The translations under genes were made by a program, and so were the position numbers. A DNA stretch of 64,000 nt from Escherichia phage KKE7M: the sequence record PQ356295.1; one strand, 5' to 3'. Shown piece by piece: positions 20,246-63,673 of the stretch. Within the stretch, counting starts at the first letter, position 1, and the number at the start of each line of letters is the position of its first letter. The notes under the pieces are model-generated. The model was not told the origin of the DNA. It made no database searches and saw only the letters and a list, made by a program, of their open reading frames with translations.

Positions 20246-20359
20246 AATATCTCCTGATAAGTATTTAGTAGTAGTAGTATGTTGTGCGTTAAGGAGTCGC
20301 ACCCCTCCATCTCAGAAGGAACTAGGCTTGTTCTTCGAAGACACCGCTGGCACGGAGTT

Positions 20360-20435
20360 TGGTCGTGGTAAACGGAGTCGAACCGTTGTTTCTCGATTAT
20401 CGGTCGAGTGTACTAACCATCTGTACGATACCACA
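20360..20435 (-). tRNA. tRNA, anticodon GAU (Ile) by hand fold
   Basis: 7 bp acceptor, T-arm AACGG-TTCGACT-CCGTT, anticodon loop CCGATAA, CCA encoded; C at position 33 is unusual. Confidence 0.5.
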
Positions 20436-20440
20436 ATAAT

Positions 20441-20523
20441 TGGCAGCAAGGTGAGGAATCGAACCCCTTGATCTATGGTTTGGAGCCATATTGAGTACCA
20501 TACTCTTTTAAATCTACCCAGCT
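20441..20523 (-). tRNA. tRNA-like, anticodon CCA (Trp), atypical D region
   Basis: clean anticodon arm TATGG-CTCCAAA-CCATA and T-loop TTCGATT, but 26 nt between acceptor and anticodon stem and imperfect acceptor pairing. Confidence 0.35.
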
Positions 20524-20581
20524 ATGAGTTCCTTGAAGTGTCAATGTAACTTAATCATTACACCAGAAGGGAGGTATTTAG

Positions 20582-20660
20582 TGGAGGCGGGAATCGGATT
20601 TGAACCGATGATCTCCAGCATATGAAACTGGCGAGGACGACCAGACTCCTCTATCCCGCG
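20582..20660 (-). tRNA. tRNA-Met (CAU), initiator-like
   Basis: acceptor CGCGGGA with 1-72 mismatch as in bacterial initiator tRNA, loop TTCATAT, T-loop TTCAAAT, CCA encoded. Confidence 0.6.
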
Positions 20661-20675
20661 CAATCTGTAGTAATT

Positions 20676-20760
20676 TGGTAGCTAAGGTGAGACTCGAACT
20701 CACAATCCCTTGGGGCAATACGTTCTAAGCGTATCGTGTATACCATTCCACCACTTAGCC
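20676..20760 (-). tRNA. tRNA-Leu (UAG)
   Basis: class II fold with long variable arm, anticodon loop CTTAGAA, T-arm GTGAG-TTCGAGT-CTCAC, CCA encoded. Confidence 0.65.
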
Positions 20761-20837
20761 ATAATAAGTACACCACTGTAAGAAGCCTCAATGTGCTATT
20801 GACAGTTAACCAAGTCTACTCCTTGGATGGTGTTATT

Positions 20838-20912
20838 TGGTGCAGAGAGATGGTAACGATCCATCCTTTCTACCTTTTCAGGGTAGCACTAATCCGTCTC
20901 AGCTATCTCTGC
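20838..20912 (-). tRNA. tRNA-Phe (GAA)
   Basis: perfect acceptor GCAGAGA/TCTCTGC, anticodon arm CTACC-CTGAAAA-GGTAG, unusual T-loop ATCGTTA. Confidence 0.6.
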
Positions 20913-20917
20913 AAATT

Positions 20918-20993
20918 TGGTCAGTGCGGCAGGACTCGAACCTGCGACCTGAAGCGTCCAAGGCTCCCACGCTACCAACTGCGCTACGCACTG
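20918..20993 (-). tRNA. tRNA-Pro (UGG)
   Basis: perfect 7 bp acceptor, anticodon loop CTTGGAC, T-loop TTCGAGT, CCA encoded. Confidence 0.65.
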
Positions 20994-21000
20994 TAAATCT

Positions 21001-21075
21001 TGGCTGGAGATCTAGGAATCGAACCTAGTCATCACGACTTCAAAGGCCGTTGCCTTCCCACTAGGCTAATCTCCA
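21001..21075 (-). tRNA. tRNA-Gln (UUG)
   Basis: perfect acceptor TGGAGAT/ATCTCCA, anticodon loop CTTTGAA, T-loop TTCGATT, CCA encoded. Confidence 0.65.
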
Positions 21076-21127
21076 ATAAAACTAAAAATCACTTAAAAAG
21101 AACCGCTAGAGTTTGAAGGAGAAAACC

Positions 21128-21154
21128 ATGAGCGAAAAGAGAAATTTTCTCTAG
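21128..21154 (+). other. 8-codon mini-ORF (MSEKRNFL) with strong RBS inside an 8 bp inverted repeat
   Basis: GAAGGAGAAAACC-ATG; flanked by CGCTAGAG (21104-21111) and CTCTAGCG (21149-21156); lies between two tRNA genes. Confidence 0.25.
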
Positions 21155-21174
21155 CGATTCCATTTAAATAATCT

Positions 21175-21249
21175 TGGAGCGAGTAACAGGACTTGAACCT
21201 GCACCTGGAGGGTGGAAACCTCATATGCTACCATTAACACTATACCCGC
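21175..21249 (-). tRNA. tRNA-Gly (UCC)
   Basis: acceptor GCGGGTA with one G-U, anticodon loop TTTCCAC, T-loop TTCAAGT, CCA encoded. Confidence 0.6.
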
Positions 21250-21260
21250 TTAACAATATT

Positions 21261-21290
21261 ACTCTAACATATTATTAGCCCCTTTGTCAA
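21261..21290 (-). promoter_or_regulatory. promoter candidate for tRNA transcript (TTGACA N18 TAGAGT), overlapping a hairpin
   Basis: minus-strand TTGACA at 21290-21285, TAGAGT at 21266-21261, about 12 nt upstream of the tRNA-Gly 5' end; hairpin 21277-21296. Confidence 0.35.
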
Positions 21291-21304
21291 GAGGCTTTTG
21301 ATAT

Positions 21305-21634
21305 TTATTTTAAAATAGTAGATGCACCACGTCTGTTTAGATATGCAACAGTAAAGTCCAAATCACCTATTTCTTCAGGTTCCCACTGACCTTCTAAGCC
21401 ATAGCAAGAACAATGATATGCGTGTACTTCATAAAACAGAGATGTTTTCATATCATAAAAATAAACGTGAGATTCACCTTCATAATATGCACAGTCATAA
21501 GTGGCAGAAAGAATTACAATGTTATCCTTATCTAACTCTACTTCATAATATCTTTCAACATCTTCGATATCATCAAAACCATCGAAAACATTGATGTTAA
21601 AATATTTCTCTAACTCTTTTTCTGTCACATACAC
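21305..21634 (-). CDS. hypothetical protein embedded in tRNA cluster
   Basis: 109 aa acidic ORF with AAAGGAG RBS (GTG start likely); no recognisable domain. Confidence 0.45.
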   Translation of the reverse strand: MYVTEKELEKYFNINVFDGFDDIEDVERYYEVELDKDNIVILSATYDCAYYEGESHVYFYDMKTSLFYEVHAYHCSCYGLEGQWEPEEIGDLDFTVAYLNRRGASTILK

Positions 21635-21651
21635 TCCTTTAGAGTTAAAAT

Positions 21652-21726
21652 TGGTGCTCCCACAAGGACTCGAACCCTGATAAGTTGCTTACAAGGCAAC
21701 CGTAATAGCCGTTATACGATAGGAGC
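21652..21726 (-). tRNA. tRNA-Thr (UGU)
   Basis: acceptor GCTCCTA/TGGGAGC, anticodon arm GTTGC-CTTGTAA-GCAAC, T-loop TTCGAGT, CCA encoded. Confidence 0.6.
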
Positions 21727-21732
21727 AATACT

Positions 21733-21809
21733 TGGACTCGACAGGATTCGATACCTGCAATTCCAGAAGCCTATTGGCGACTGGGGGTTTACCTTAACTC
21801 TACAAGTCC
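21733..21809 (-). tRNA. tRNA-like element without a canonical anticodon arm (possible pseudo-tRNA)
   Basis: 7 bp acceptor GGACTTG/CGAGTCC and T-arm with 8 nt loop TATCGAAT, but the 44 nt core does not fold into D and anticodon arms. Confidence 0.3.
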
Positions 21810-21816
21810 ATAATTC

Positions 21817-21901
21817 TGGCGATGGATCAAGGATTTGAACCTTGCTAGAACTTTCGTTCACGGATTAACAGTCCGTCGCCCAACCACTAGGCCAATCCAT
21901 C
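21817..21901 (-). tRNA. tRNA with anticodon GUU (Asn) but class II-like 15 nt variable arm
   Basis: perfect acceptor GATGGAT/ATCCATC, anticodon arm ACGGA-CTGTTAA-TCCGT, variable arm GAACGAAAGTTCTAG, T-loop TTCAAAT, CCA encoded. Confidence 0.5.
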
Positions 21902-21908
21902 TTTAATT

Positions 21909-21995
21909 TGGTGCAGGTAGTTGGACTCGAACCAACGAAGCCCCGAAGGGCAAGAGATTTACAGTCTCCAGCAATTGCCGCTATGCGATACCTAC
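21909..21995 (-). tRNA. tRNA-Tyr (GUA)
   Basis: class II fold, anticodon loop CTGTAAA, long variable arm with GCCC/GGGC stem, T-loop TTCGAGT, CCA encoded. Confidence 0.6.
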
Positions 21996-22000
21996 GTGTT

Positions 22001-22075
22001 TGGTACATCGTGAAGGATTCGAACCTTCGCTCCCTTGATTAAAAGTCAAGTGCCTTACCGCTTGGCTAACGATGC
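22001..22075 (-). tRNA. tRNA-Lys (UUU)
   Basis: acceptor GCATCGT/ACGATGT, anticodon arm CTTGA-CTTTTAA-TCAAG, T-loop TTCGAAT, CCA encoded. Confidence 0.65.
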
Positions 22076-22435
22076 ATACTCTTTACACCACCGTGTATGT
22101 CCAGCATAAGCCTTTGTACTATGGAATACTGCTCCGCAAACACACACCGTGGTTCTAATTCTGTTTCCCATGTCTTGGGAAATTCTTGTCTTCTTCATGT
22201 GACAAGCATGACACAAAAGTTGACATTTGGCAAGTTCTTCTTGCCATTTAGCCTCCGAACATGAACTCATTCGACTAATATAAAACTTCTTCTCGCTTGA
22301 ATCTTTATGATCAAATTCCAAGTCATCTACAGACCCACAATTAACACATTTACCTCCAAGCTGGAGGATTGCGGAAGCTCTTCGCTTCTGCCACCGAGTT
22401 TTCATGTATTCCCGCATATAATCATTACTTGGCAT
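22055..22435 (-). CDS. HNH homing endonuclease
   Basis: CVNCGS...EFDHKD...LLCHACH motif set; AGGAGG RBS; 3' end overlaps first 21 nt of tRNA-Lys. Confidence 0.7.
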   Translation of the reverse strand: MPSNDYMREYMKTRWQKRRASAILQLGGKCVNCGSVDDLEFDHKDSSEKKFYISRMSSCSEAKWQEELAKCQLLCHACHMKKTRISQDMGNRIRTTVCVCGAVFHSTKAYAGHTRWCKEYASLAKR

Positions 22436-22582
22436 ACATCCTCCTCGTATAAATTATCTTTAAAATAGCCAGTGTTTGCGGCACTTAGCTATGAAGTATT
22501 GGGGTATCGGTAAAGTGGTTGCCGCCACTTGCCGAAGATTTACTCTGCTAAAGTAAGAGTACAAGCTACATTAAAGATAACT

Positions 22583-22668
22583 TGGCGGTAGATGTAGGAC
22601 TTGAACCTACACGCCGTTTCCGACGACAGTTTAGCAAACTGTTGTGGCTACCATTTCACCAATCTACC
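22583..22668 (-). tRNA. tRNA-Ser (GCU)
   Basis: perfect acceptor GGTAGAT/ATCTACC, anticodon arm ACAGT-TTGCTAA-ACTGT, long variable arm, T-loop TTCAAGT, CCA encoded. Confidence 0.65.
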
Positions 22669-22713
22669 ATTTTTAATTATTCAAAACAACCTGAATCTGT
22701 TACTAATTGAATT

Positions 22714-22803
22714 TGGAGGAAGATAATGGAGTCGAACCATCACCGTATCGCTACAATGGGCCAGGGTTCAAACCTGGTTGCGCACCGCTGCGCCCTACCT
22801 TCC
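22714..22803 (-). tRNA. tRNA-Ser (UGA)
   Basis: anticodon arm CCAGG-TTTGAAC-CCTGG, long variable arm, T-loop TTCGACT, CCA encoded. Confidence 0.6.
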
Positions 22804-22867
22804 CGTTATCATACTTTAAATCTAACATAAAACTATCTTGCTTGTCAAGTAGTTTTTAAAAACTTTT

Positions 22868-22949
22868 TGGCCGGGGTGACAGGATTCGAACCTGCATACT
22901 CCAATTACTCGGTTAACGCCTGATTAGAAGTCAGGTGAGATACACCCCG
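22868..22949 (-). tRNA. tRNA-like, anticodon UCU (Arg), apparently lacking a D arm
   Basis: perfect acceptor CGGGGTG/CACCCCG and canonical T-arm, but only 7 nt between acceptor and anticodon stem (CCTGA-CTTCTAA-TCAGG) and 23 nt before the T-arm. Confidence 0.4.
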
Positions 22950-23030
22950 TTTTCACAGTAACTATAACAAAAAACTAAGTAAATGTCAAGATATTTTTAC
23001 TAAAATTATTATTTAAATTGAAGCCTAGGT

Positions 23031-23116
23031 TGGTGCAAGTGGAGGGATTCGAACCCTCAATCATTTAAGCGTTGCGTTTTAAGCACAATGTGTATCACCA
23101 ATTCCACCACACTTGC
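23031..23116 (-). tRNA. tRNA-Leu (UAA)
   Basis: perfect acceptor GCAAGTG/CACTTGC, anticodon loop CTTAAAA, long variable arm, T-arm GAGGG-TTCGAAT-CCCTC, CCA encoded. Confidence 0.65.
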
Positions 23117-52899: not shown

Positions 52900-53328
52900 A
52901 TGTTACCAGTACCTGTAATATTTGTAGAAAAAGCCTACTACTCTTTAGAACAAAACTGTAAAAGAGCTAAAAATTTTATTGAAAGTTTAGCAGAACAACG
53001 TTACACTGTATCTAAAAAGGGATGGTTTAGAAATTCACAATATTTAGTCAACCCTTTCGGAGAAGTTCGTGTGTTGTACGGCAACACAGAAAACATCTTA
53101 GAAAGAATGTTAGAACTAGATAGGATCTCCTCCTGTGATTATCAACTGTTGAAATTTTACGATGTGTCAGAAAACATTAAAAACTTTCTTGACGATTTGT
53201 CTAAACGAAAAACAGAAGAAGATACAATACCAGTATCTATGGAAGAATTAACGTTCTTAAGAGATATTATGGTTTTTGAAGAAAACCCTGAAATTACAAA
53301 AGAGGAGATTTTAAGTAGTGGCAAATAA
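52900..53328 (+). CDS. hypothetical protein
   Basis: 142 aa ORF with GGAGG RBS. Confidence 0.5.
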   Translation: MLPVPVIFVEKAYYSLEQNCKRAKNFIESLAEQRYTVSKKGWFRNSQYLVNPFGEVRVLYGNTENILERMLELDRISSCDYQLLKFYDVSENIKNFLDDLSKRKTEEDTIPVSMEELTFLRDIMVFEENPEITKEEILSSGK

Positions 53329-53827
53329 GTATGATCGTCCACCAACTGATTACTATCCTACTCCACAAAAATGTATAAATGCATTATTTAGTGTAATAGA
53401 TTTTAATAACCTTAAAGAAGAAGGTTTTATTTTTGCAGAACCGTGTAAAGGCGCTGCTGCTGCAATTTATCAACATTTTCCAGAAGGATCAGAATATTGT
53501 GAGTTAGAAGAAGGGAAGGATTATTTTAACCACGAATGGCATACTAAGCCGGATATTATAATCACAAATCCACCATTCAGACTTGCACTTGAGTTCTTGC
53601 AAAAGAGCTTAAAAGAAGCAGACGTTTGCATATACTTGTTGCGTCTTGGGTTCCTAGAGTCTATTAAACGAAGGGAATTCCATAAACAGAATCCACCAAC
53701 AAATTTGATTGTTCTCTCTGAACGACCATCTTTTGTTGCAGGTGGCACTGACAAGACAGCATATGCTTGGTACGTCTACGACCCAAAAAACAGGCTGGGT
53801 TTAACTCAACCTTTCTATTTTGTTTAA
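53318..53827 (+). CDS. DNA N6-adenine methyltransferase (phage Dam-like), candidate
   Basis: IIITNPPF motif IV and FAEPCKGAAA SAM-binding motif I. Confidence 0.55.
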   Translation: MANKYDRPPTDYYPTPQKCINALFSVIDFNNLKEEGFIFAEPCKGAAAAIYQHFPEGSEYCELEEGKDYFNHEWHTKPDIIITNPPFRLALEFLQKSLKEADVCIYLLRLGFLESIKRREFHKQNPPTNLIVLSERPSFVAGGTDKTAYAWYVYDPKNRLGLTQPFYFV

Positions 53828-53840
53828 GAGGAGCATTTTT

Positions 53841-54071
53841 ATGACCGAGAAATTTATTGTTACTATGGAACTCACCTTTGATGAAGAAGATTTTGATCTT
53901 CACGTATCAACTAAAGCAGATAACATTCACACAACACAGAGTGTTGCAATCGCTATGTTCTTTAAACAAGCAATTGCAAAACAAGCTGAAGTGTGTGCTG
54001 GTTTAGCTGTAGAGTATGCAGAAGTTGTCAAGGTTCTTGAAAATGCTCGTAACAACGATTGGGAAGAATAA
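53841..54071 (+). CDS. hypothetical protein
   Basis: ORF 53820..54071 in track; likely ATG 53841 with AAGAGGAG RBS. Confidence 0.4.
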   Translation: MTEKFIVTMELTFDEEDFDLHVSTKADNIHTTQSVAIAMFFKQAIAKQAEVCAGLAVEYAEVVKVLENARNNDWEE

Positions 54072-54274
54072 TGGCATACAATTACTATCTGGTATATTTT
54101 AACGAAACTAAGAAAAAAGACACAGGGACTAATGTTTATGCGGAATCCGAAGAACACGCAAAAGCTATTGGTTCAGTGCTTCTTTCTAGAATAGCAGGTG
54201 AAGAAATTCCTGTAGAAGCTATCTTTGCAGAAGTTGATCCTGGTATTCAAGAAGATGATATTACCACTACTTAA
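54071..54274 (+). CDS. hypothetical protein
   Basis: ORF 54059..54274 in track; likely ATG 54071. Confidence 0.35.
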   Translation: MAYNYYLVYFNETKKKDTGTNVYAESEEHAKAIGSVLLSRIAGEEIPVEAIFAEVDPGIQEDDITTT

Positions 54275-54277
54275 CTG

Positions 54278-54306
54278 TTGACTTTAACGTTAAGGTAGTG
54301 CATACT
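54278..54306 (+). promoter_or_regulatory. promoter candidate (TTGACT N17 CATACT) with palindrome TTAACGTTAA in the spacer
   Basis: TTGACT 54278-54283; 10 bp perfect palindrome 54284-54293; -10-like 54301-54306. Confidence 0.3.
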
Positions 54307-54331
54307 TCCTGTAACAGAACAGGAGGGTATT

Positions 54332-54994
54332 ATGAAGTTTGTACTGTATCATCGACTTTCTAAGAAGAAACAACAAGGCAACCAGTATGGTATAGAATCA
54401 CAGGAAGCAGATATCCAACGCTTCCTGGATTCACAAGAAAATTATACTATTGTAGGTAGCTTTGCAGAGTTTTATTCTGGTAAAGGCGATTGGAAGCAAC
54501 GTAGAGAGCTTGTAAAAGCTGTTAATCTTTGCAAAGAAACAGGTGCTACACTTGTTGTTGCTAAGGTTGACCGTCTTGGACGTAACACAGCTTCTGTTGC
54601 AACCTTGTTAGAGATGATTAATGTACGAATAGCAACGATGCCCTCCGCTGAAAATATGATAATAAATATTTTAGCAGTTCTGGCAGAAGAAGAGGCTCGT
54701 GCAATATCGGATCGTGTTAAGAAGAGCCTTAAGGTAGCAAAAGCGAAGGGAACGCTTCTTGGTGCAGCAAACCCTAAATACAAAAGAACAGATTATACGA
54801 AAACGGAAGAAGCAAAACGCTCAAAAGAGTTTGCGCTTTCTTTAAAAGATTCTTTAGTTGCATACAGGGCTTGTAAAACGCCATATATGACGATTGCAAA
54901 GCATCTGAATGAATCAGGAAAGAGAACTATTCGTGGGAGTTTGTTCGATGCCAAAGCGGTACAACGTCTTTGTGCAAAATTGAATATTAAATAA
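54332..54994 (+). CDS. small serine recombinase (resolvase/invertase family)
   Basis: LYHRLSKKKQQ catalytic Ser region, VVAKVDRLGRN, LAEEEARAISDRVKKSLKVAKAKG, C-terminal HTH-like tail. Confidence 0.65.
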   Translation: MKFVLYHRLSKKKQQGNQYGIESQEADIQRFLDSQENYTIVGSFAEFYSGKGDWKQRRELVKAVNLCKETGATLVVAKVDRLGRNTASVATLLEMINVRIATMPSAENMIINILAVLAEEEARAISDRVKKSLKVAKAKGTLLGAANPKYKRTDYTKTEEAKRSKEFALSLKDSLVAYRACKTPYMTIAKHLNESGKRTIRGSLFDAKAVQRLCAKLNIK

Positions 54995-55003
54995 GGAGGA
55001 AAC

Positions 55004-55207
55004 ATGGCAGTTCAATCTTTTGAGGAGACTGTTAAAAAACAATTCCTATCGAAGCGAGCGATGGTTGAATTTTTGCATTTTCTCGAAGTAGATAGGGTAC
55101 TTATTGAGACTACACCAGATGGTAACTGGCAAGTCTCGTATATTGCCACCAGGCATATCGTAGACAGTACGAAAGAAGAAATTTCGGAAGTTACGGTTGC
55201 TAGTTAA
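55004..55207 (+). CDS. hypothetical protein
   Basis: 67 aa ORF with AAGGAGGAAAC RBS. Confidence 0.45.
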   Translation: MAVQSFEETVKKQFLSKRAMVEFLHFLEVDRVLIETTPDGNWQVSYIATRHIVDSTKEEISEVTVAS

Positions 55208-55218
55208 AGGAGTTAAAT

Positions 55219-55791
55219 ATGCGTTTAGCTTTTAACGGGAAGATAAGCACAGCAAACATATTATCAGCAATAGGATTATTAGGTAAAAAATTCACACCTT
55301 TCAGTTTACCCGTTTGTGTAGATTTTGATCATGTATTTGATATTAATAATCCTTCACGTTGTATCGCCAGAAGTAATATTGATAACCCAAGTGAAAATCT
55401 GTTTTATATTACTAAACCATCCCAAGCAATTTTGAATCAATGGGAAGCAGGTCTGATTAAACCAGGTAAATATTTTGCATTACTACCTTGTAAATCATTG
55501 GCTATAGAGGACAGTCTAAACTATGCAAACAATCTTATTGTTACAGCATTCATTGTCTCAGAAAAAGAAGAAACTGCGGCACTTGCAAACACTGTTAAAT
55601 CTTTGTATGATTCTTTGGGTGTTACTTACACTACATTCGTTTGTGAAGATATTCCTCATTGCGTTGAATTTGTAGTAAATGGTGTAACTGTATGTCGTGT
55701 AGAAACAACGCAAGATGAGGACGTTTTTATTACTGTAGCCGATGTAATATCTGAACCTGTGTTTAGTTACGCAGTTTCATTAACACATTAA
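55219..55791 (+). CDS. hypothetical protein
   Basis: 190 aa ORF. Confidence 0.5.
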   Translation: MRLAFNGKISTANILSAIGLLGKKFTPFSLPVCVDFDHVFDINNPSRCIARSNIDNPSENLFYITKPSQAILNQWEAGLIKPGKYFALLPCKSLAIEDSLNYANNLIVTAFIVSEKEETAALANTVKSLYDSLGVTYTTFVCEDIPHCVEFVVNGVTVCRVETTQDEDVFITVADVISEPVFSYAVSLTH

Positions 55792-55801
55792 GGAGAAGGG
55801 G

Positions 55802-56128
55802 ATGAAAATAACGACAGAACAGGCTTTAATAGACAAAGGAAGGGAAATCTTAGAAAGTCATTTGGAGGATATTCAAAGGACTCCAGGGTATCTCGGCTGG
55901 CGTATACAAGAAGCCGTCGATTTTCTACCCCGAAAAAATAAAGAGATTGAGGTAAGATCTCTATTCCTCCTTGTTAAAGTAGATGGTGACGCTATATACA
56001 AAGATGTAGCGTCTCACATTGAACAAATAGAAGAAAAAGCCTACAAAGAATTTGCAGATCTTGTTGTAGAACATAATATAGAAGGTAAAGTTAATATCTT
56101 TATACTTATGGATTTTGAGGAGAATTGA
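55802..56128 (+). CDS. hypothetical protein
   Basis: 108 aa ORF with AAGGAGAAGGGG RBS. Confidence 0.5.
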   Translation: MKITTEQALIDKGREILESHLEDIQRTPGYLGWRIQEAVDFLPRKNKEIEVRSLFLLVKVDGDAIYKDVASHIEQIEEKAYKEFADLVVEHNIEGKVNIFILMDFEEN

Positions 56129-56871
56129 TGCTAGTATATCAAGAAATTAGTGTAAAAGATGATCAAGACCTGTTTATTATTGGTGATTTACATGGTTGCT
56201 TTGATTTGTACCAGAAAGGTGTTAATACTTTAGGTATCCGAGATCAAGATGTTGTTGTATCTTTAGGAGATCTTACAGATCGCGGCAAGCAGAATTTTCG
56301 TTGTACCGTTGAATTCACCAGAAAGCTAAATCGCTATGGTATTCGTGGAAATCACGAAGATATGATGATTAAAGGGTTGCTAGAAGGTGATAGACGATAT
56401 TACGAATGTTGGTTTCAGAACGGAGGCCATACAGTTCTAAATGAGTGTGGAGAAGAAGGTGCAACTGCTCTTGCTTTGATGCTAGAAGACTTACCTGTTG
56501 TACTTGTTGTCAATTATCGTAATATGAAACTAGGCTTTATTCACGGAGGATATCCTTCAGTTTTGGAACATCTGCCAGTGACGGAAGTTTTGCCATTTTG
56601 TTCGAATATGAATAAAGAACAAGTATCTCGATTCACAGAATCTTTAATGTGGGATCGTGATATGATAGATTGCGCCCTTGAAGGGATTCTTCTTCCTAGA
56701 GTTTCAGGAGTAGATTATGTATTTCACGGGCATTCTTATGTTCCTAAACCTGTGATTAGCAGTAATAGGGTATATATGGATACAGGATCTTGCTTCAATG
56801 GTAATTTAACCTTTGCATATTTTGATGATTCAAATACGTTACAATTTTATTCTACTTTAGAGGAGGACTAA
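56128..56871 (+). CDS. PPP-family Ser/Thr protein phosphatase (lambda-phosphatase-like)
   Basis: GDLHGC, GDLTDRG, GNHE motifs in canonical order; ATG 56128 with GAGGAG RBS. Confidence 0.8.
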   Translation: MLVYQEISVKDDQDLFIIGDLHGCFDLYQKGVNTLGIRDQDVVVSLGDLTDRGKQNFRCTVEFTRKLNRYGIRGNHEDMMIKGLLEGDRRYYECWFQNGGHTVLNECGEEGATALALMLEDLPVVLVVNYRNMKLGFIHGGYPSVLEHLPVTEVLPFCSNMNKEQVSRFTESLMWDRDMIDCALEGILLPRVSGVDYVFHGHSYVPKPVISSNRVYMDTGSCFNGNLTFAYFDDSNTLQFYSTLEED

Positions 56872-58539: not shown

Positions 58540-58544
58540 TATAA

Positions 58545-58567
58545 ACCCGCTTCGGCGGGTTTTTTGT
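58545..58567 (+). terminator. rho-independent terminator
   Basis: AAACCCGC-TTCG-GCGGGTTTTTT. Confidence 0.7.
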
Positions 58568-60813: not shown

Positions 60814-61347
60814 ATGGGTTTTGATGACATGTTATTATATGAGGAGGCTTGTGTGAAAGAAGCTATGGCTTTACCAGTTTTATCTATTGATATTACAACA
60901 GTAGACACTTTTTCAGATTGTGAAACGTGTGGATCGTATTCATCTATTGTACATGAAGTCAGTGGGGATTTAGGCACTTACGAAGATGGAGATTATGCAA
61001 GTTGTTTAGGTGATAATCGAGATGGTGAAGTGGCGAATGTTGCAAACTGGATCGCTTCTAAGTTAAAAGAAAGAAATCGTCCGTTCCCTAATCTTCTTAC
61101 ACCAGAATCTATGCTTAAAGCTGAACAAGAGATGGATGACTATGGTTATAAAGTAGATTATGACTATAATGATCCTACTTATAAAAAATTGAGTGACAAG
61201 TATTGGGAACTAGCTAATGCTTATGATAAATACTACTCTACAGAAAACATTGTTAAATTATTTTTAGATTTTGGAGTAGAAATTAATTGGGATTTCGAAG
61301 AGGAAGAGCGTTACGATGCATCTTATTGGGAGGACGAGGGTGAATGA
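60814..61347 (+). CDS. hypothetical acidic protein
   Basis: ORF 60799..61347 in track; likely ATG 60814 with GGAGG RBS. Confidence 0.45.
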   Translation: MGFDDMLLYEEACVKEAMALPVLSIDITTVDTFSDCETCGSYSSIVHEVSGDLGTYEDGDYASCLGDNRDGEVANVANWIASKLKERNRPFPNLLTPESMLKAEQEMDDYGYKVDYDYNDPTYKKLSDKYWELANAYDKYYSTENIVKLFLDFGVEINWDFEEEERYDASYWEDEGE

Positions 61348-62084
61348 TAGAACGAAAACCCTTACCAGATAGAGATTACTTGTTATCAAGGTTTAGTGTG
61401 GAGAATGGTCGTCTTGTTTGGAAACCTAAACCTTCTACAACAAAAGAGAACAAAAGGTGGAATAGCAGATACGCAGGGAAGATTGCAGGGACTATTGATA
61501 AAGTTGGTTACTCTCATGTCAAAATAGATGGTATTGTATATTTGGAGCACAGAATTTGTTTTAAAATGTATCATAATTACTGTCCAGATGTTATAGACCA
61601 TGACGACGGCAATAAACTTAATAATGCGGAAAGTAATTTATTGGATAGTAACTATTTATTAAATAATAACAATAGACACGTAGATGGGTTAGAAGGTATT
61701 TATGAAAAGGATGGTGTTTTTCTTTGGGTTATAAACTACAACCAAGAAACTTTCTCTGTTTCAGGTTTCAAAACTAAAGAGGAAGCTACTGTAGCTAGAG
61801 CTTTAGCAAAACAAGAAATTTTGAAAGGATCTTATATCAAAAAAGAAAAGAAGCGTATAGATAACACTTCAGGATTAAGTTGTGTGTTTGTGGCAACAAG
61901 AGAGAGAACATTCTTTTTCAAGTTTGTGTTTGACAAGACCGCTTATTGCAAATATGGTTTCAACGATCCAGAGAGATGTGCTATAGCTCTGGAGAAGTTA
62001 AGGTTGAAGGTGATGAAAGAAAAATATAAACCTGCAAATAAAAGCATTTGCGAAAAATATAAGGAGGAGATTTATGCCGCGTAG
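61344..62084 (+). CDS. HNH homing endonuclease
   Basis: GYSHVKIDGIVYLEHRICFKMYHNYCPDVIDHDDGNKLNN HNH core. Confidence 0.65.
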   Translation: MIERKPLPDRDYLLSRFSVENGRLVWKPKPSTTKENKRWNSRYAGKIAGTIDKVGYSHVKIDGIVYLEHRICFKMYHNYCPDVIDHDDGNKLNNAESNLLDSNYLLNNNNRHVDGLEGIYEKDGVFLWVINYNQETFSVSGFKTKEEATVARALAKQEILKGSYIKKEKKRIDNTSGLSCVFVATRERTFFFKFVFDKTAYCKYGFNDPERCAIALEKLRLKVMKEKYKPANKSICEKYKEEIYAA

Positions 62085-62889
62085 AGTCATATTCATAACT
62101 GGCGCAGGACTATCTGTGGATAGCGGTATCCCAGCTTTTAGAACAGATACTTCTTCAGGGGAGGCGTTATGGTCTTCTTATGATCTTTCTGAGGTCTGTG
62201 ACATTTTCAACTTCCGTGATGGTTATCAGCAAGAACAAGGTGTTCTTGATGCTATGGGTGGTTTAGATGCGGAAGGATATAACCTCTACCGTAAAACTCA
62301 CGACTTTTACAATAAACGTCGCGTGGAATTAGCGAAAGTTGACCCGAATCCAGCACATCTTCAGATTGGAGAATGGTTCAAAAAATATGGCCCAGAACGA
62401 ATTCTTAACATTACTACTAACGTGGATGACCTCCTTGAACGAGCAGGAGTAAATAGGGAAGAAGTGCTACATGTGCACGGTTTTCTTCCTGAAATTACTT
62501 TTCAAAGAAAAGCTGGACAACCTACAATTGTAAAAGATGTTGGTTATCAAGCCATAGATGTAGATGACTACCATTATGTAAAACCTAATGTAATTTTCTT
62601 TGGAGAAGCTGCTCCACTTTACACAGATATGTATCATATTCTTGATACACTAACGGCTCAAGATATGGTTGTAGTAGTAGGATGTTCAAACCAAGTTATC
62701 AATTTTAATTGGGAATTATTCCCTGCACTTAATATGGGTACAAAAATGATCGTTGTTAACCCAGGAATTAATTACGAAGAAACTCTTCTTTACGAAGATA
62801 GAGGAGTCTTTGTTTATCGAGAAAAGGCCGCAGATGCTTTTAGCAATCCTGCTTTCATAAAAATGATAGAAGATCATTTGACTAAATAA
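62074..62889 (+). CDS. SIR2-family (sirtuin-like) NAD-dependent protein
   Basis: FITGAGLSVDSGIPAFR NAD-binding motif, TTNVDDL, HVHG catalytic His; no CxxC zinc module evident. Confidence 0.75.
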   Translation: MPRRVIFITGAGLSVDSGIPAFRTDTSSGEALWSSYDLSEVCDIFNFRDGYQQEQGVLDAMGGLDAEGYNLYRKTHDFYNKRRVELAKVDPNPAHLQIGEWFKKYGPERILNITTNVDDLLERAGVNREEVLHVHGFLPEITFQRKAGQPTIVKDVGYQAIDVDDYHYVKPNVIFFGEAAPLYTDMYHILDTLTAQDMVVVVGCSNQVINFNWELFPALNMGTKMIVVNPGINYEETLLYEDRGVFVYREKAADAFSNPAFIKMIEDHLTK

Positions 62890-63645: not shown

Positions 63646-63668
63646 AGAAAACCCGCCGAAGCGGGTTT
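63646..63668 (-). terminator. rho-independent terminator
   Basis: minus-strand AAACCCGC-TTCG-GCGGGTTT, same stem as the one at 58545. Confidence 0.55.
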
Positions 63669-63673
63669 ATGCG

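Follow-up and report, generated by a model that had tools for sequence, protein, structure and literature searches.

A conserved small serine recombinase in phi92-like lytic coliphages, with a possible resolvase-like role

Introduction

What use does a lytic phage have for a site-specific recombinase? Small serine resolvases and invertases are carried by a transposon, a plasmid or a temperate phage, whereas the gene considered here is carried by a lytic phage, Escherichia phage KKE7M (record PQ356295.1), of which a stretch of 64,000 nucleotides (the window) was analyzed. A sequence-only reading of the window had offered three roles for the product: an invertase controlling a switchable segment, a concatemer resolution function, or autoregulation through a palindrome in the putative promoter spacer. 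The question has a practical side. Phages considered for therapy are screened for recombinase genes, which are flagged as possible markers of lysogeny, and an intact serine recombinase is maintained by strong purifying selection throughout this subfamily of therapeutic-candidate lytic phages and also in many other large lytic phages.

A literature search on the recombinase and its orthologs found no experimental work and one speculative sentence on an ortholog. The account favored here, tentatively and with confidence somewhat short of even, is that the gene is the ortholog of Phi92_gp053, that it has its own promoter, that the palindrome in this promoter is a product of chance, and that the enzyme would act in a single-site, resolvase- or Cre-like manner on copies of the phage genome.

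The gene and its orthologs

The gene and the ORFs on either side of it are arranged as follows.

54071..54274, + strand: upstream ORF of 67 aa (phrog_15892), which accompanies the recombinase in some lineages
54332..54994, + strand: serine recombinase gene, an ORF of 220 aa, ortholog of Phi92_gp053
55004..55207, + strand: downstream ORF of 67 aa, beginning 9 nt past the recombinase stop codon

The source of the window is a phi92-like lytic coliphage (Justusliebigvirus). The window matches 55 Justusliebigvirus records at 95-99.5% identity, and the description of this phage as apparently lytic in the sequence-only reading was right. The recombinase has 100% protein identity to phi92 gp053, with no difference in sequence, and every one of the 55 Justusliebigvirus records has it, at 99-100% identity; phage records that match it number 161 in total. 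Public Justusliebigvirus genomes label the orthologs DNA invertase or recombinase, and annotated counterparts are found in both Justusliebigvirus and Phapecoctavirus (e.g. bas62_0194, "putative site-specific recombinase", and phAPEC8_0049). The ORF at 54332-54994 is a real, intact and already annotated gene, not a new one.

The recombinase is also widespread in other genera of the Stephanstirmvirinae, with the catalytic residues all intact, and the hosts of this subfamily span several genera (Escherichia, Klebsiella, Salmonella and Serratia). Against diverged orthologs, dN/dS is 0.02-0.09 with synonymous change saturated, and the gene is, to judge from these alignments, under strong purifying selection.

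The recombinase sits within a block of DNA-metabolism and host-takeover genes. Gene order around it matches that in JohannJBalmer and FKP3, and its neighbors vary between genera. In FKP3 and KP13-16 a homolog of the upstream 67-aa ORF immediately precedes the recombinase; phAPEC8 and the P0019 contig lack this ORF. The downstream 67-aa ORF has a conserved counterpart next to the FKP3 recombinase and a weakly conserved one in KP13-16; it gave no match in Pfam, NCBIfam or PADLOC, and its AF2 model (pLDDT 78.6) has no significant fold match. With two database homologs only and no such fold match, it was rejected as a candidate accessory factor. Also set aside was the FKP3 gene annotated as a "recombination directionality factor", which is a PF25682 member with a lipoprotein-like N-terminus and without a homolog among phi92-like genomes. 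PADLOC and Rfam scans found nothing.

Domain architecture

Two domains can be delimited in the protein.

54341..54754, + strand: catalytic domain, residues 4-141 (Pfam PF00239 Resolvase, E 8.4e-22)
54797..54979, + strand: predicted C-terminal four-helix DNA-binding domain, residues 156-216 (AF2; PF07508 in relatives)

The proposal that the product is a small serine recombinase of the resolvase/invertase type is borne out by Pfam PF00239 (78.3 bits over residues 4-141, against a curated cut-off of 23.3), by PHROG 125 "DNA invertase" (E 1e-31), by the AF2 model and by Foldseek. Both of the motifs that had been pointed out are present in the translation: the RLS nucleophile region is part of YHRLS, with the codon of the nucleophile Ser10 at 54359-54361, and DRLGRN (54569-54586) is part of VDRLGRN, residues 79-85. 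Conserved across 27 homologs are Y6, R8, S10, Q24, R57, D80, R81, R84, E121 and R128. No homolog departs from D80, R81 or R84, and conservation of R8 and S10 is 90% or more; these five correspond to R8, S10, D67, R68 and R71 of gamma-delta resolvase. The AF2 model (pLDDT 86.6) shows what is expected of the superfamily, a mixed alpha/beta fold and then a long E-helix (residues 108-138), and Foldseek with this model matched Sin, gamma-delta resolvase and Bxb1 with a probability of 1.0. By motifs and predicted fold, the catalytic domain is a member of the serine recombinase superfamily, strand exchange being predicted to proceed via a 5'-phosphoserine, and the ORF as a whole encodes what is, on the same grounds, a small serine site-specific recombinase of the lytic subfamily Stephanstirmvirinae.

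The catalytic fold, the serine nucleophile, the Arg/Asp set and the long E-helix are common to this protein and to gamma-delta/Tn3 resolvase, Sin, Hin and Gin, which are also of similar size (~190-220 aa). It differs from these enzymes by the absence of an adjacent res site or invertible segment and, in alignments with small resolvases and invertases, by connections between helix D and beta4 and between beta4 and helix E that are each ~5 residues shorter.

The C-terminal domain sets it further apart. In the AF2 model its helices comprise residues 156-170, 172-180, 185-194 and 207-216. PF07508 is matched by 19 of the 27 family members and HTH_7 by none (E <= 1). The domain is similar to the helical portion with which the "Recombinase" domain of large serine integrases opens, and unlike the helix-turn-helix of Hin or Tn3 type. 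In line with this resemblance, the best PDB match found by Foldseek is Bxb1 integrase, over 251 columns that run from the catalytic domain into the first part of the recombinase domain, and the NCBIfam CcrB model aligned over positions 10-225. The catalytic domain and the beginning of the "Recombinase" domain are thus common to the phage protein, the integrases Bxb1, PhiC31 and TP901-1, and CcrB. Large serine integrases exceed 400 aa, however, and have a full recombinase domain, a zinc ribbon and a coiled coil, the last two of which are used for att-site selection. The phage protein, with 220 aa, lacks these; the AF2 model and the domain search find only four helices after the E-helix, and no zinc ribbon or coiled coil.

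Near full-length alignments were obtained with two further NCBIfam models, that of the Mpi master invertase (NF009949; positions 5-197 of 203, 33.5 bits where the cut-off is 272) and that of YneB (NF049883; positions 2-190 of 211, 29.8 bits against 175). These alignments suggest that the recombinase has a two-domain layout similar to that of Mpi, of Bacteroides, and YneB; membership in either family was rejected on scores far under the cut-offs.

The two domains evolve differently. Among ordinary orthologs, identity is 63-86% in the catalytic domain and 31-62% in the C-terminal domain. Klebsiella phage 05F01 shows the reverse (N-domain 37%, C-domain 60%): its catalytic domain has been swapped for that of a different serine recombinase, and the phi92-type C-terminal domain has been kept, which argues for selection on both catalysis and site recognition.

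A possible single-site role

Resolution of concatemers or multimers is, judging by analogy with plasmid-borne homologs, the best remaining of the three roles proposed earlier. The sequence-only reading had held that a lack of recombination sites genome-wide would count against its proposals, but this does not apply to concatemer resolution, since for a res- or lox-type function a single site in each copy of the genome suffices.

Among plasmid-borne proteins, the nearest full-length homologs (34-36% identity at 96-100% coverage) are encoded on plasmids of 5.8-7.3 kb. Three were examined: pMaD11 (Marinovum), pP18_i (Phaeobacter) and pIITB3_2 (Synechococcus), each with a recombinase that is a full-length homolog of the phage protein at low identity (~35%). 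Two of the three, pMaD11 and pP18_i, encode little besides replication, ParA-type partition and the recombinase, a gene content typical of multimer resolution, which would be the function of the plasmid enzymes; pIITB3_2 has only unannotated genes. The presence of homologs on minimal replication-plus-partition plasmids is consistent with a role at a single site, like that of a resolvase or of Cre.

In such a reaction, a recombinase dimer would bind a putative target site and two sites would synapse as a tetramer. Ser10 would then cut all four strands to leave 2-nt overhangs, and subunit rotation would exchange the partners. The most likely substrate would be a single site in each copy of the phage genome, so that resolvase-like or Cre/lox-like action would separate or join genome copies. 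These phages have short direct terminal repeats, and cyclization or concatemerization of genomes with such ends may be a further possibility; the flipping of a switch or integration of the phage would not be likely. Direct terminal repeats have been reported for the Stephanstirmvirinae (PMC12210895, PMC12695924), and the same resolution-type guess has been made, without data, for a Phapecoctavirus ortholog (PMC10282059).

Several points count against a resolvase-like role. Resolvases of the Tn3, gamma-delta and Sin type are part of the transposon or plasmid that they resolve, whereas this gene is in a lytic phage genome. A res site of their type, with several dimer subsites overlapping the promoter, was not found in the 57-bp upstream intergenic region, where promoter hexamers are the only elements conserved across lineages. 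The usual arrangement of res beside its resolvase gene is therefore absent. For comparison, pMaD11 has ~680 bp of non-coding DNA before its recombinase gene, while the phage gene has 57 bp. Furthermore, phages that package from short terminal repeats by T7-like logic require no site-specific recombinase, and so the necessity of a resolvase-like role is undemonstrated. The frameshifts in the Schickermooser copy of the gene (see below) and the modest identity of the plasmid homologs (only ~35%) were counted on the same side.

Fur-box-like 19-bp palindromes at the terminal repeat were considered as recombinase sites and judged unlikely. Their symmetry, 9-1-9, is odd, while cleavage by serine recombinases is centered on 2 bp; they also match the Fur 7-1-7 consensus exactly.

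The proposal that a virulent phage uses a serine recombinase routinely in its lytic cycle, either in a Cre/lox-like manner, as in P1, to join or cyclize copies at or near the 342-bp terminal repeat, or to cut or rearrange the DNA of the host or of competitors, is given only a small probability. If lytic-cycle recombination does occur, the conserved C-terminal domain would define the target. Knowing the target would also make available a compact recombinase, 220 aa long, of new specificity.

Alternatives: targets outside the phage genome, or no role at all

The failure of searches of the phage genome to yield a site raises the alternative that the target lies elsewhere, in host DNA, resident plasmids, prophages, satellites or the genomes of co-infecting phages; a host locus might, for example, be rearranged or broken. 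The predicted host-type promoter and the location among host-takeover and DNA-metabolism genes would suit such a function, and the faster evolution of the C-terminal domain (31-62% identity, against 63-86% for the catalytic domain) could reflect the tracking of different hosts. However, there is no positive sign of any host target, PADLOC gave no match, and the spread of hosts over Escherichia, Klebsiella, Salmonella and Serratia argues against one specific locus. A target off the phage genome is accordingly rated unlikely.

Also improbable, in our assessment, is that the gene is a dispensable passenger, a selfish or relic recombinase with no lytic role in a variable accessory region. Its gene neighbors do differ among genera, and the catalytic-domain exchange in 05F01 shows modular turnover. 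In addition, phage Schickermooser has a copy with several frameshifts which, if they are no sequencing errors, would mean that the recombinase is dispensable for plaque formation. Against this reading stand the low dN/dS (0.02-0.09, at synonymous saturation) and the occurrence of the gene in 55 of 55 Justusliebigvirus records and widely in other genera of the subfamily, with its catalytic residues intact; even the swap in 05F01 retained an intact enzyme.

Is the recombinase a DNA invertase?

The invertase proposal holds that the recombinase flips a phage segment between inverted crossover sites, switching expression as Gin, Cin, Hin and Mpi do. It draws on the name "DNA invertase" in PHROG 125 and many GenBank records, on the weak full-length match to the Mpi model (33.5 bits, cut-off 272), and on the one inversion polymorphism of the genus, an 871-bp cassette (EC_OE_11 L007:2445-3315) that is inverted in ~30 of the 55 genomes and lies ~29 kb beyond the window. 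The cassette does not behave as a switch. Its ends have no inverted repeats (alignment score at chance), and identity is 97.6-100% in one orientation versus 91.7-95.8% in the other, with 6-7% divergence co-segregating. Because orientation follows sequence lineage exactly, the inversion is best read as an old, fixed event.

Otherwise the ~55 related genomes are collinear, tail-fibre genes included, the collinearity of the gene-variable early region resting on direct comparison with three genomes. For the Hin, Gin, Cin and Pin enzymes, one expects the gene to lie beside a segment bounded by ~26-bp inverted crossover sites, an HTH_7-type C-terminal domain, and both orientations independent of lineage. 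Here, matches to flanking DNA are at chance level, HTH_7 is absent, and among the ~55 genomes no lineage-independent orientation was found. A search over ~146 kb for partners of the recombinase-flanking DNA gave a best score of 26 bits, the null mean also being 26, which leaves the gene-adjacent DNA without an inverted partner, and none of 79 viral-contig relatives has an adjacent invertible segment between inverted repeats.

The sequence-only reading had called for a genome search for inverted repeat pairs resembling Gin/Hin-type sites. In the window and the early region no convincing pair of crossover sites, inverted or direct, was found; the repeat pairs detected there are tRNA genes, terminator hairpins, promoter/stem-loop units and Fur-box-like dyads, and Mpi-type inverted-repeat pairs were likewise not found in these parts of the phage genome. 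Three other signals were examined and discarded. A tail-fibre match in "two places" in J-01 (also flagged in cardinal; J-01 was the one checked) involves collinear genes with tail-protein genes of different size and no inversion; a 15.9-kb deletion in 92CQ has no repeats at its junction and was rejected as a site-specific deletion; and a fused gene at the inversion border is unsupported by Pfam as DUF2829/Tad2-like. In these genome comparisons nothing suggests that the recombinase flips a DNA switch, and control of a switchable segment, as first proposed, is very unlikely. "Invertase" is an annotation label, not a finding.

The promoter and its palindrome

The region just upstream of the gene contains the following elements.

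54278..54283, + strand: -35 hexamer TTGACT of a sigma-70-type promoter (TTGACT-17-CATACT); TTGAC is shared by six diverged lineages
54284..54293, no strand: palindrome TTAACGTTAA, perfect over 10 bp, within the spacer of the promoter, an exact match and a chance feature
54301..54306, + strand: -10 hexamer CATACT; nATAnT at 17-bp spacing is conserved in the alignment
54321..54327, + strand: AGGAGGG, the ribosome-binding site, 4 nt upstream of the start codon ATG, conserved in Justusliebigvirus-type relatives

A promoter match here is not significant by itself, since between 50 and 60 kb of the window there are 30 promoter-like matches where 31 would be expected. The evidence comes from conservation: TTGAC and nATAnT at 17-bp spacing are retained in six lineages (51-88% protein identity) with unrelated spacers. 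The recombinase is predicted to be driven by its own host-type sigma-70 promoter, in which the hexamers are conserved and the spacer is free to vary.

The palindrome had been seen as a possible means of autoregulation, in which the recombinase would bind TTAACGTTAA between -35 and -10 and repress its own promoter. The location exactly within the spacer invites this idea, and resolvases of the Tn3 TnpR type do repress their own promoters through res. The palindrome itself stands, exact at 54284-54293, but its significance does not. Perfect 10-bp palindromes are fewer in the window than in shuffled sequence (52 versus 85 +/- 7), and the motif with at most one mismatch occurs twice against 4.4 expected. 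It is missing from all six lineages compared (relatives at 88, 85, 82, 78, 57 and 51% protein identity), the spacer being different in each while the flanking hexamers are retained. Moreover, 10 bp is far under the dimer site of a serine recombinase, which spans roughly 24-30 bp. Frequency and lack of conservation speak against the palindrome as an operator; it is, on comparative grounds, a lineage-specific accident of a variable promoter spacer, not a conserved operator. The earlier over-reading is corrected accordingly, in that the palindrome carries no signal, and autoregulation through it is highly improbable.

Probably not a marker of lysogeny

That the enzyme is a cryptic integrase, inserting all or part of the phage into the host chromosome, is suggested by the fact that some serine recombinases are integrases and by the second-best PHROG match (PHROG 95, "integrase"), but it is extremely improbable given the missing zinc-ribbon and coiled-coil domains, the literature description of these phages as strictly lytic, and a search of 5,426 complete E. 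coli genomes, plasmids included, in which the region had no match and neither phi92-like DNA nor a prophage copy with att junctions was found. The lack of prophage copies, together with the missing integrase-specific domains, argues that this recombinase is not a lysogeny marker.

A serine recombinase gene in a lytic phage subfamily

The sequence-only reading had pointed to a small serine recombinase gene, with its catalytic motifs, a putative promoter and a perfect palindrome in the promoter spacer, and every one of these features is present:

54278-54283, +: -35 hexamer, TTGACT
54284-54293: 10-bp palindrome, TTAACGTTAA, between TTGACT and CATACT
54301-54306, +: -10 hexamer, CATACT, 17 bp from the -35 hexamer
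54332-54994, +: serine recombinase gene (ORF, 220 aa)
54359-54361, +: Ser10 of the YHRLS motif
Residues 79-85: VDRLGRN

Residues 4-141 of the protein match the Pfam Resolvase family (PF00239) at E 8.4e-22, scoring 78 bits where the cut-off is 23, and the protein also matches PHROG 125, "DNA invertase". The surrounding region, 53300-56200, shares 95-99.5% identity with 55 phage records of Justusliebigvirus, a genus of phi92-like lytic myoviruses in the subfamily Stephanstirmvirinae, and its nearest record is that of 92CQ. The protein itself matches Phi92_gp053 at 100% identity and its counterpart in all 55 records at 99% or more. The gene is already public, under names that differ from record to record ("DNA invertase", "recombinase family protein", "putative site-specific recombinase" and "hypothetical protein"). 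Elsewhere in the subfamily, phAPEC8-like phages, FKP3 and KP13-16 carry orthologs at 51-78% identity, and remoter homologs are found in large Vibrio, Shewanella and Cellulophaga phages. The gene lies in a long + strand block devoted to nucleotide and DNA metabolism, along with genes for ribonucleotide reductase, PhoH, a methyltransferase, a phosphatase and a DprA-like protein. The point of interest is the retention of this recombinase by a lytic phage subfamily.

A probably active, short serine recombinase

In an alignment of 27 homologs, extending to 30% identity, residues Q24, E46, G50, R57, D80, R81, R84, E121 and R128 are invariant, and conservation at Y6, R8 and S10 reaches at least 90%. 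Pairwise comparisons with orthologs at 78-88% identity give dN/dS values of 0.02-0.09 and saturated synonymous sites. Together, these values indicate a strongly constrained gene whose product is probably an active enzyme.

In an AlphaFold2 model (pLDDT 86.6), the alpha/beta catalytic domain is followed by a long E-helix (residues 108-138), and beyond a disordered linker (145-158) lies a C-terminal domain of four helices (156-216). The top Foldseek match is the large serine integrase Bxb1, in an alignment that spans the catalytic domain and runs into the start of the recombinase domain; the catalytic domains of Sin and gamma-delta resolvase come next. The Pfam "Recombinase" family (PF07508) is matched by 19 of the 27 family members and HTH_7 by none of them, while the NCBIfam matches to CcrB, Mpi and YneB are weak and all below threshold. 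Based on these results, the protein is a short serine recombinase whose DNA-binding domain is the initial helical portion of the "Recombinase" domain of large serine recombinases. This architecture differs from that of Hin/Gin-type invertases and from that of Tn3-type resolvases, and it has neither the zinc ribbon nor the coiled coil of the integrases. Viral contigs contain at least 591 relatives of like length.

In ordinary orthologs the catalytic domain is better conserved than the C-terminal domain, and this pattern is reversed in the chimeric recombinase of Klebsiella phage 05F01 (locus L104:1108-1779).

Identity of each domain to the window protein (phage: N-domain, C-domain)
FKP3: 86%, 62%
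phAPEC8: 68%, 42%
KP13-16: 63%, 31%
05F01: 37%, 60%

The 05F01 protein has a phi92-type C-terminal domain fused to a catalytic domain of a different, classical resolvase-like type, with a longer beta4-helix E connection. The original catalytic module has given way to a foreign one and the DNA-binding module was retained, as expected if the selected function is recombination at a particular target. The comparison provides evidence that both halves of the recombinase matter. In Schickermooser (locus L103:1000-1750), several frameshifts interrupt the 5' half of the ortholog and the gene is annotated for the 3' part only, reflecting either sequencing error or a gene that can be lost in culture.

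Possible roles of the recombinase

The best remaining proposal, of low confidence, is a single-site role like that of a resolvase or of Cre. The nearest plasmid-borne full-length homologs (34-36% identity) are found on plasmids of 5.8-7.3 kb. Two of the three plasmids examined, pMaD11 and pP18_i, consist essentially of a replication gene, a ParA-type partition gene and the recombinase; the third, pIITB3_2, has unannotated genes only. Replication, partition and recombinase genes together are the standard setting of a multimer-resolution system, for which one site per replicon suffices. The concatemer resolution suggested by the sequence-only reading belongs here, and a multimer-resolution role has been guessed for the SKA64 ortholog in one paper (PMC10282059).

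Short direct terminal repeats are reported for BME3, where they measure 342 bp, and for new Stephanstirmvirinae (PMC12210895, PMC12695924). The BME3 repeat maps to L007:19731-20072 of the close relative EC_OE_11, about 12 kb past the window's end, and one end of the mapped repeat falls at a perfect Fur-type palindrome. Because a direct repeat at each end provides two copies of its contents, a Cre/lox-like cyclisation or joining step is conceivable. No candidate crossover site was found, the conserved dyads in or near the terminal repeat included, and the res site that usually lies beside a resolvase gene is absent. Those dyads are unlikely candidates, given their odd 9-1-9 symmetry and their match to the Fur-box consensus. 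In the BME3 record the repeat is present in three copies, full or partial, several bases are N, and the ends look imperfectly assembled.

The proposal that the enzyme inverts a switchable segment is not supported. The window plus the remainder of the genome from EC_OE_11 (L006 and L007) was compared, in pieces of 19-25 kb, with a phage collection. About 55 Justusliebigvirus records are collinear with window 1-64000 and L006 1-50000, a span containing every tail-fibre and tailspike gene; those matching in two places are split by an arbitrary record start or, for J-01, differ in the tail-protein region. Matches to the gene-variable early region (L007 1-25000) were fragmented, and direct comparison with muut, 92CQ and JohannJBalmer showed collinearity except for an inverted cassette of 871 bp. 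Repeat searches in the window and the early region revealed no convincing inverted pair; what they returned were tRNA genes, terminators, promoter units and Fur-box-like dyads. No direct or inverted partner of the DNA beside the recombinase gene rose above chance anywhere in the genome, and in 79 viral relatives no segment adjacent to the recombinase has flanking inverted repeats.

The 871-bp cassette, the single inversion polymorphism, lies at EC_OE_11 L007:2445-3315, about 29 kb past the window's end (92CQ counterpart, L009:2104-2975), and contains a pair of small genes, divergent promoters and the 5' portion of another gene. The inverted form is found in 92CQ, phi92 and muut, and in about 30 of 55 Justusliebigvirus genomes in all. 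The cassette's orientation tracks sequence lineage exactly (97.6-100% identity one way, 91.7-95.8% the other), makes or breaks a gene fusion (a 183-aa fusion gene versus split 55-aa and 112-aa genes), and is accompanied by no inverted repeat at the borders. These properties argue against a flip-flop switch, and the inversion is an old, fixed rearrangement.

Two findings argue against lysogeny: a search of 5,426 complete E. coli genomes, plasmids included, gave no match to the region, and the protein is missing the integrase-specific domains.

Promoter and palindrome

Promoter-like matches in 50-60 kb number 30 against 31 expected, and a consensus match by itself would not be significant. The intergenic region was judged by conservation, in an alignment of relatives whose recombinases are 88, 85, 82, 78, 57 and 51% identical. 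TTGAC and nATAnT hexamers 17 bp apart, just 5' of the ribosome-binding site, occur in all lineages aligned, and the 17-bp spacer shows no relation between them. Such conservation supports a real promoter with an unconstrained spacer.

The palindrome, proposed as a possible means of autoregulation, is present in none of the six relatives. The window has 52 perfect 10-bp palindromes against 85 +/- 7 in shuffled sequence, and a search for this motif that allowed up to one mismatch gave two occurrences, with 4.4 expected. The palindrome is a one-lineage accident, noise not above chance, and the autoregulation reading is not supported. The gene and its promoter are genuine; the original observation was real but only half meaningful.

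Other features of the window and its relatives

Arrays of a 19-bp palindrome, AATGA[T/G]AATCATT[C/A]TCATT, which matches the Fur-box consensus and includes a perfect 7-1-7 core, TGATAATCATTATCA, occupy two large non-coding regions (EC_OE_11 L007:8032-8148, 18777-18854 and 19474-19960; FKP3 L105:40, 540 and 10833-10920). The consensus, with up to three mismatches, occurs 5 times against 0.01 expected; it is absent from the window, and its position is conserved in a Klebsiella phage. The arrays could serve in iron- or Fur-linked regulation, in Fur titration or as a packaging signal. Beside the first array, a non-coding AT-rich unit of 67-79 nt is repeated three times in tandem (L007:7791-8011); these iteron-like units could mark a replication origin. 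A repeated early-gene unit (L007:9041, 9411, 12010, 12328, 15580, 16138 and 17213) consists of a TTGACA-type promoter and then a conserved GC stem-loop, CATAGGGCGG...CCGCC, just 5' of each small ORF.

Within the window, an identical 23-nt GC hairpin, AAACCCGCTTCGGCGGGTTT, is found in both orientations 5 kb apart (58541-58563 and 63648-63670), with further copies in L007; it is probably the same terminator serving opposite strands. Repeat families at about 20300-23100 on the - strand look like a tRNA gene cluster, the repeats being tRNA 3' halves, and many tRNAs are annotated at the counterpart in related records.

The 92CQ genome (129.8 kb) is missing 15,877 bp present in all relatives (L106:3065/3066 versus EC_OE_11 L006:27440-43316). 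The junction, inside a gene annotated "ribonucleotide reductase", has no repeats, and the gap represents either a deletion mutant or an assembly error. Four records named "Campylobacter phage" (MG065639, MG065645, MG065656 and MG065689; host Campylobacter jejuni) match these coliphages at about 98% identity across tens of kb and are probably mislabelled or contaminant genomes. Finally, the window has about 0.7 kb extra at 61331-62561 relative to EC_OE_11 (1,230 versus 509 nt between matching blocks), an indel in the minus-strand early-gene region.
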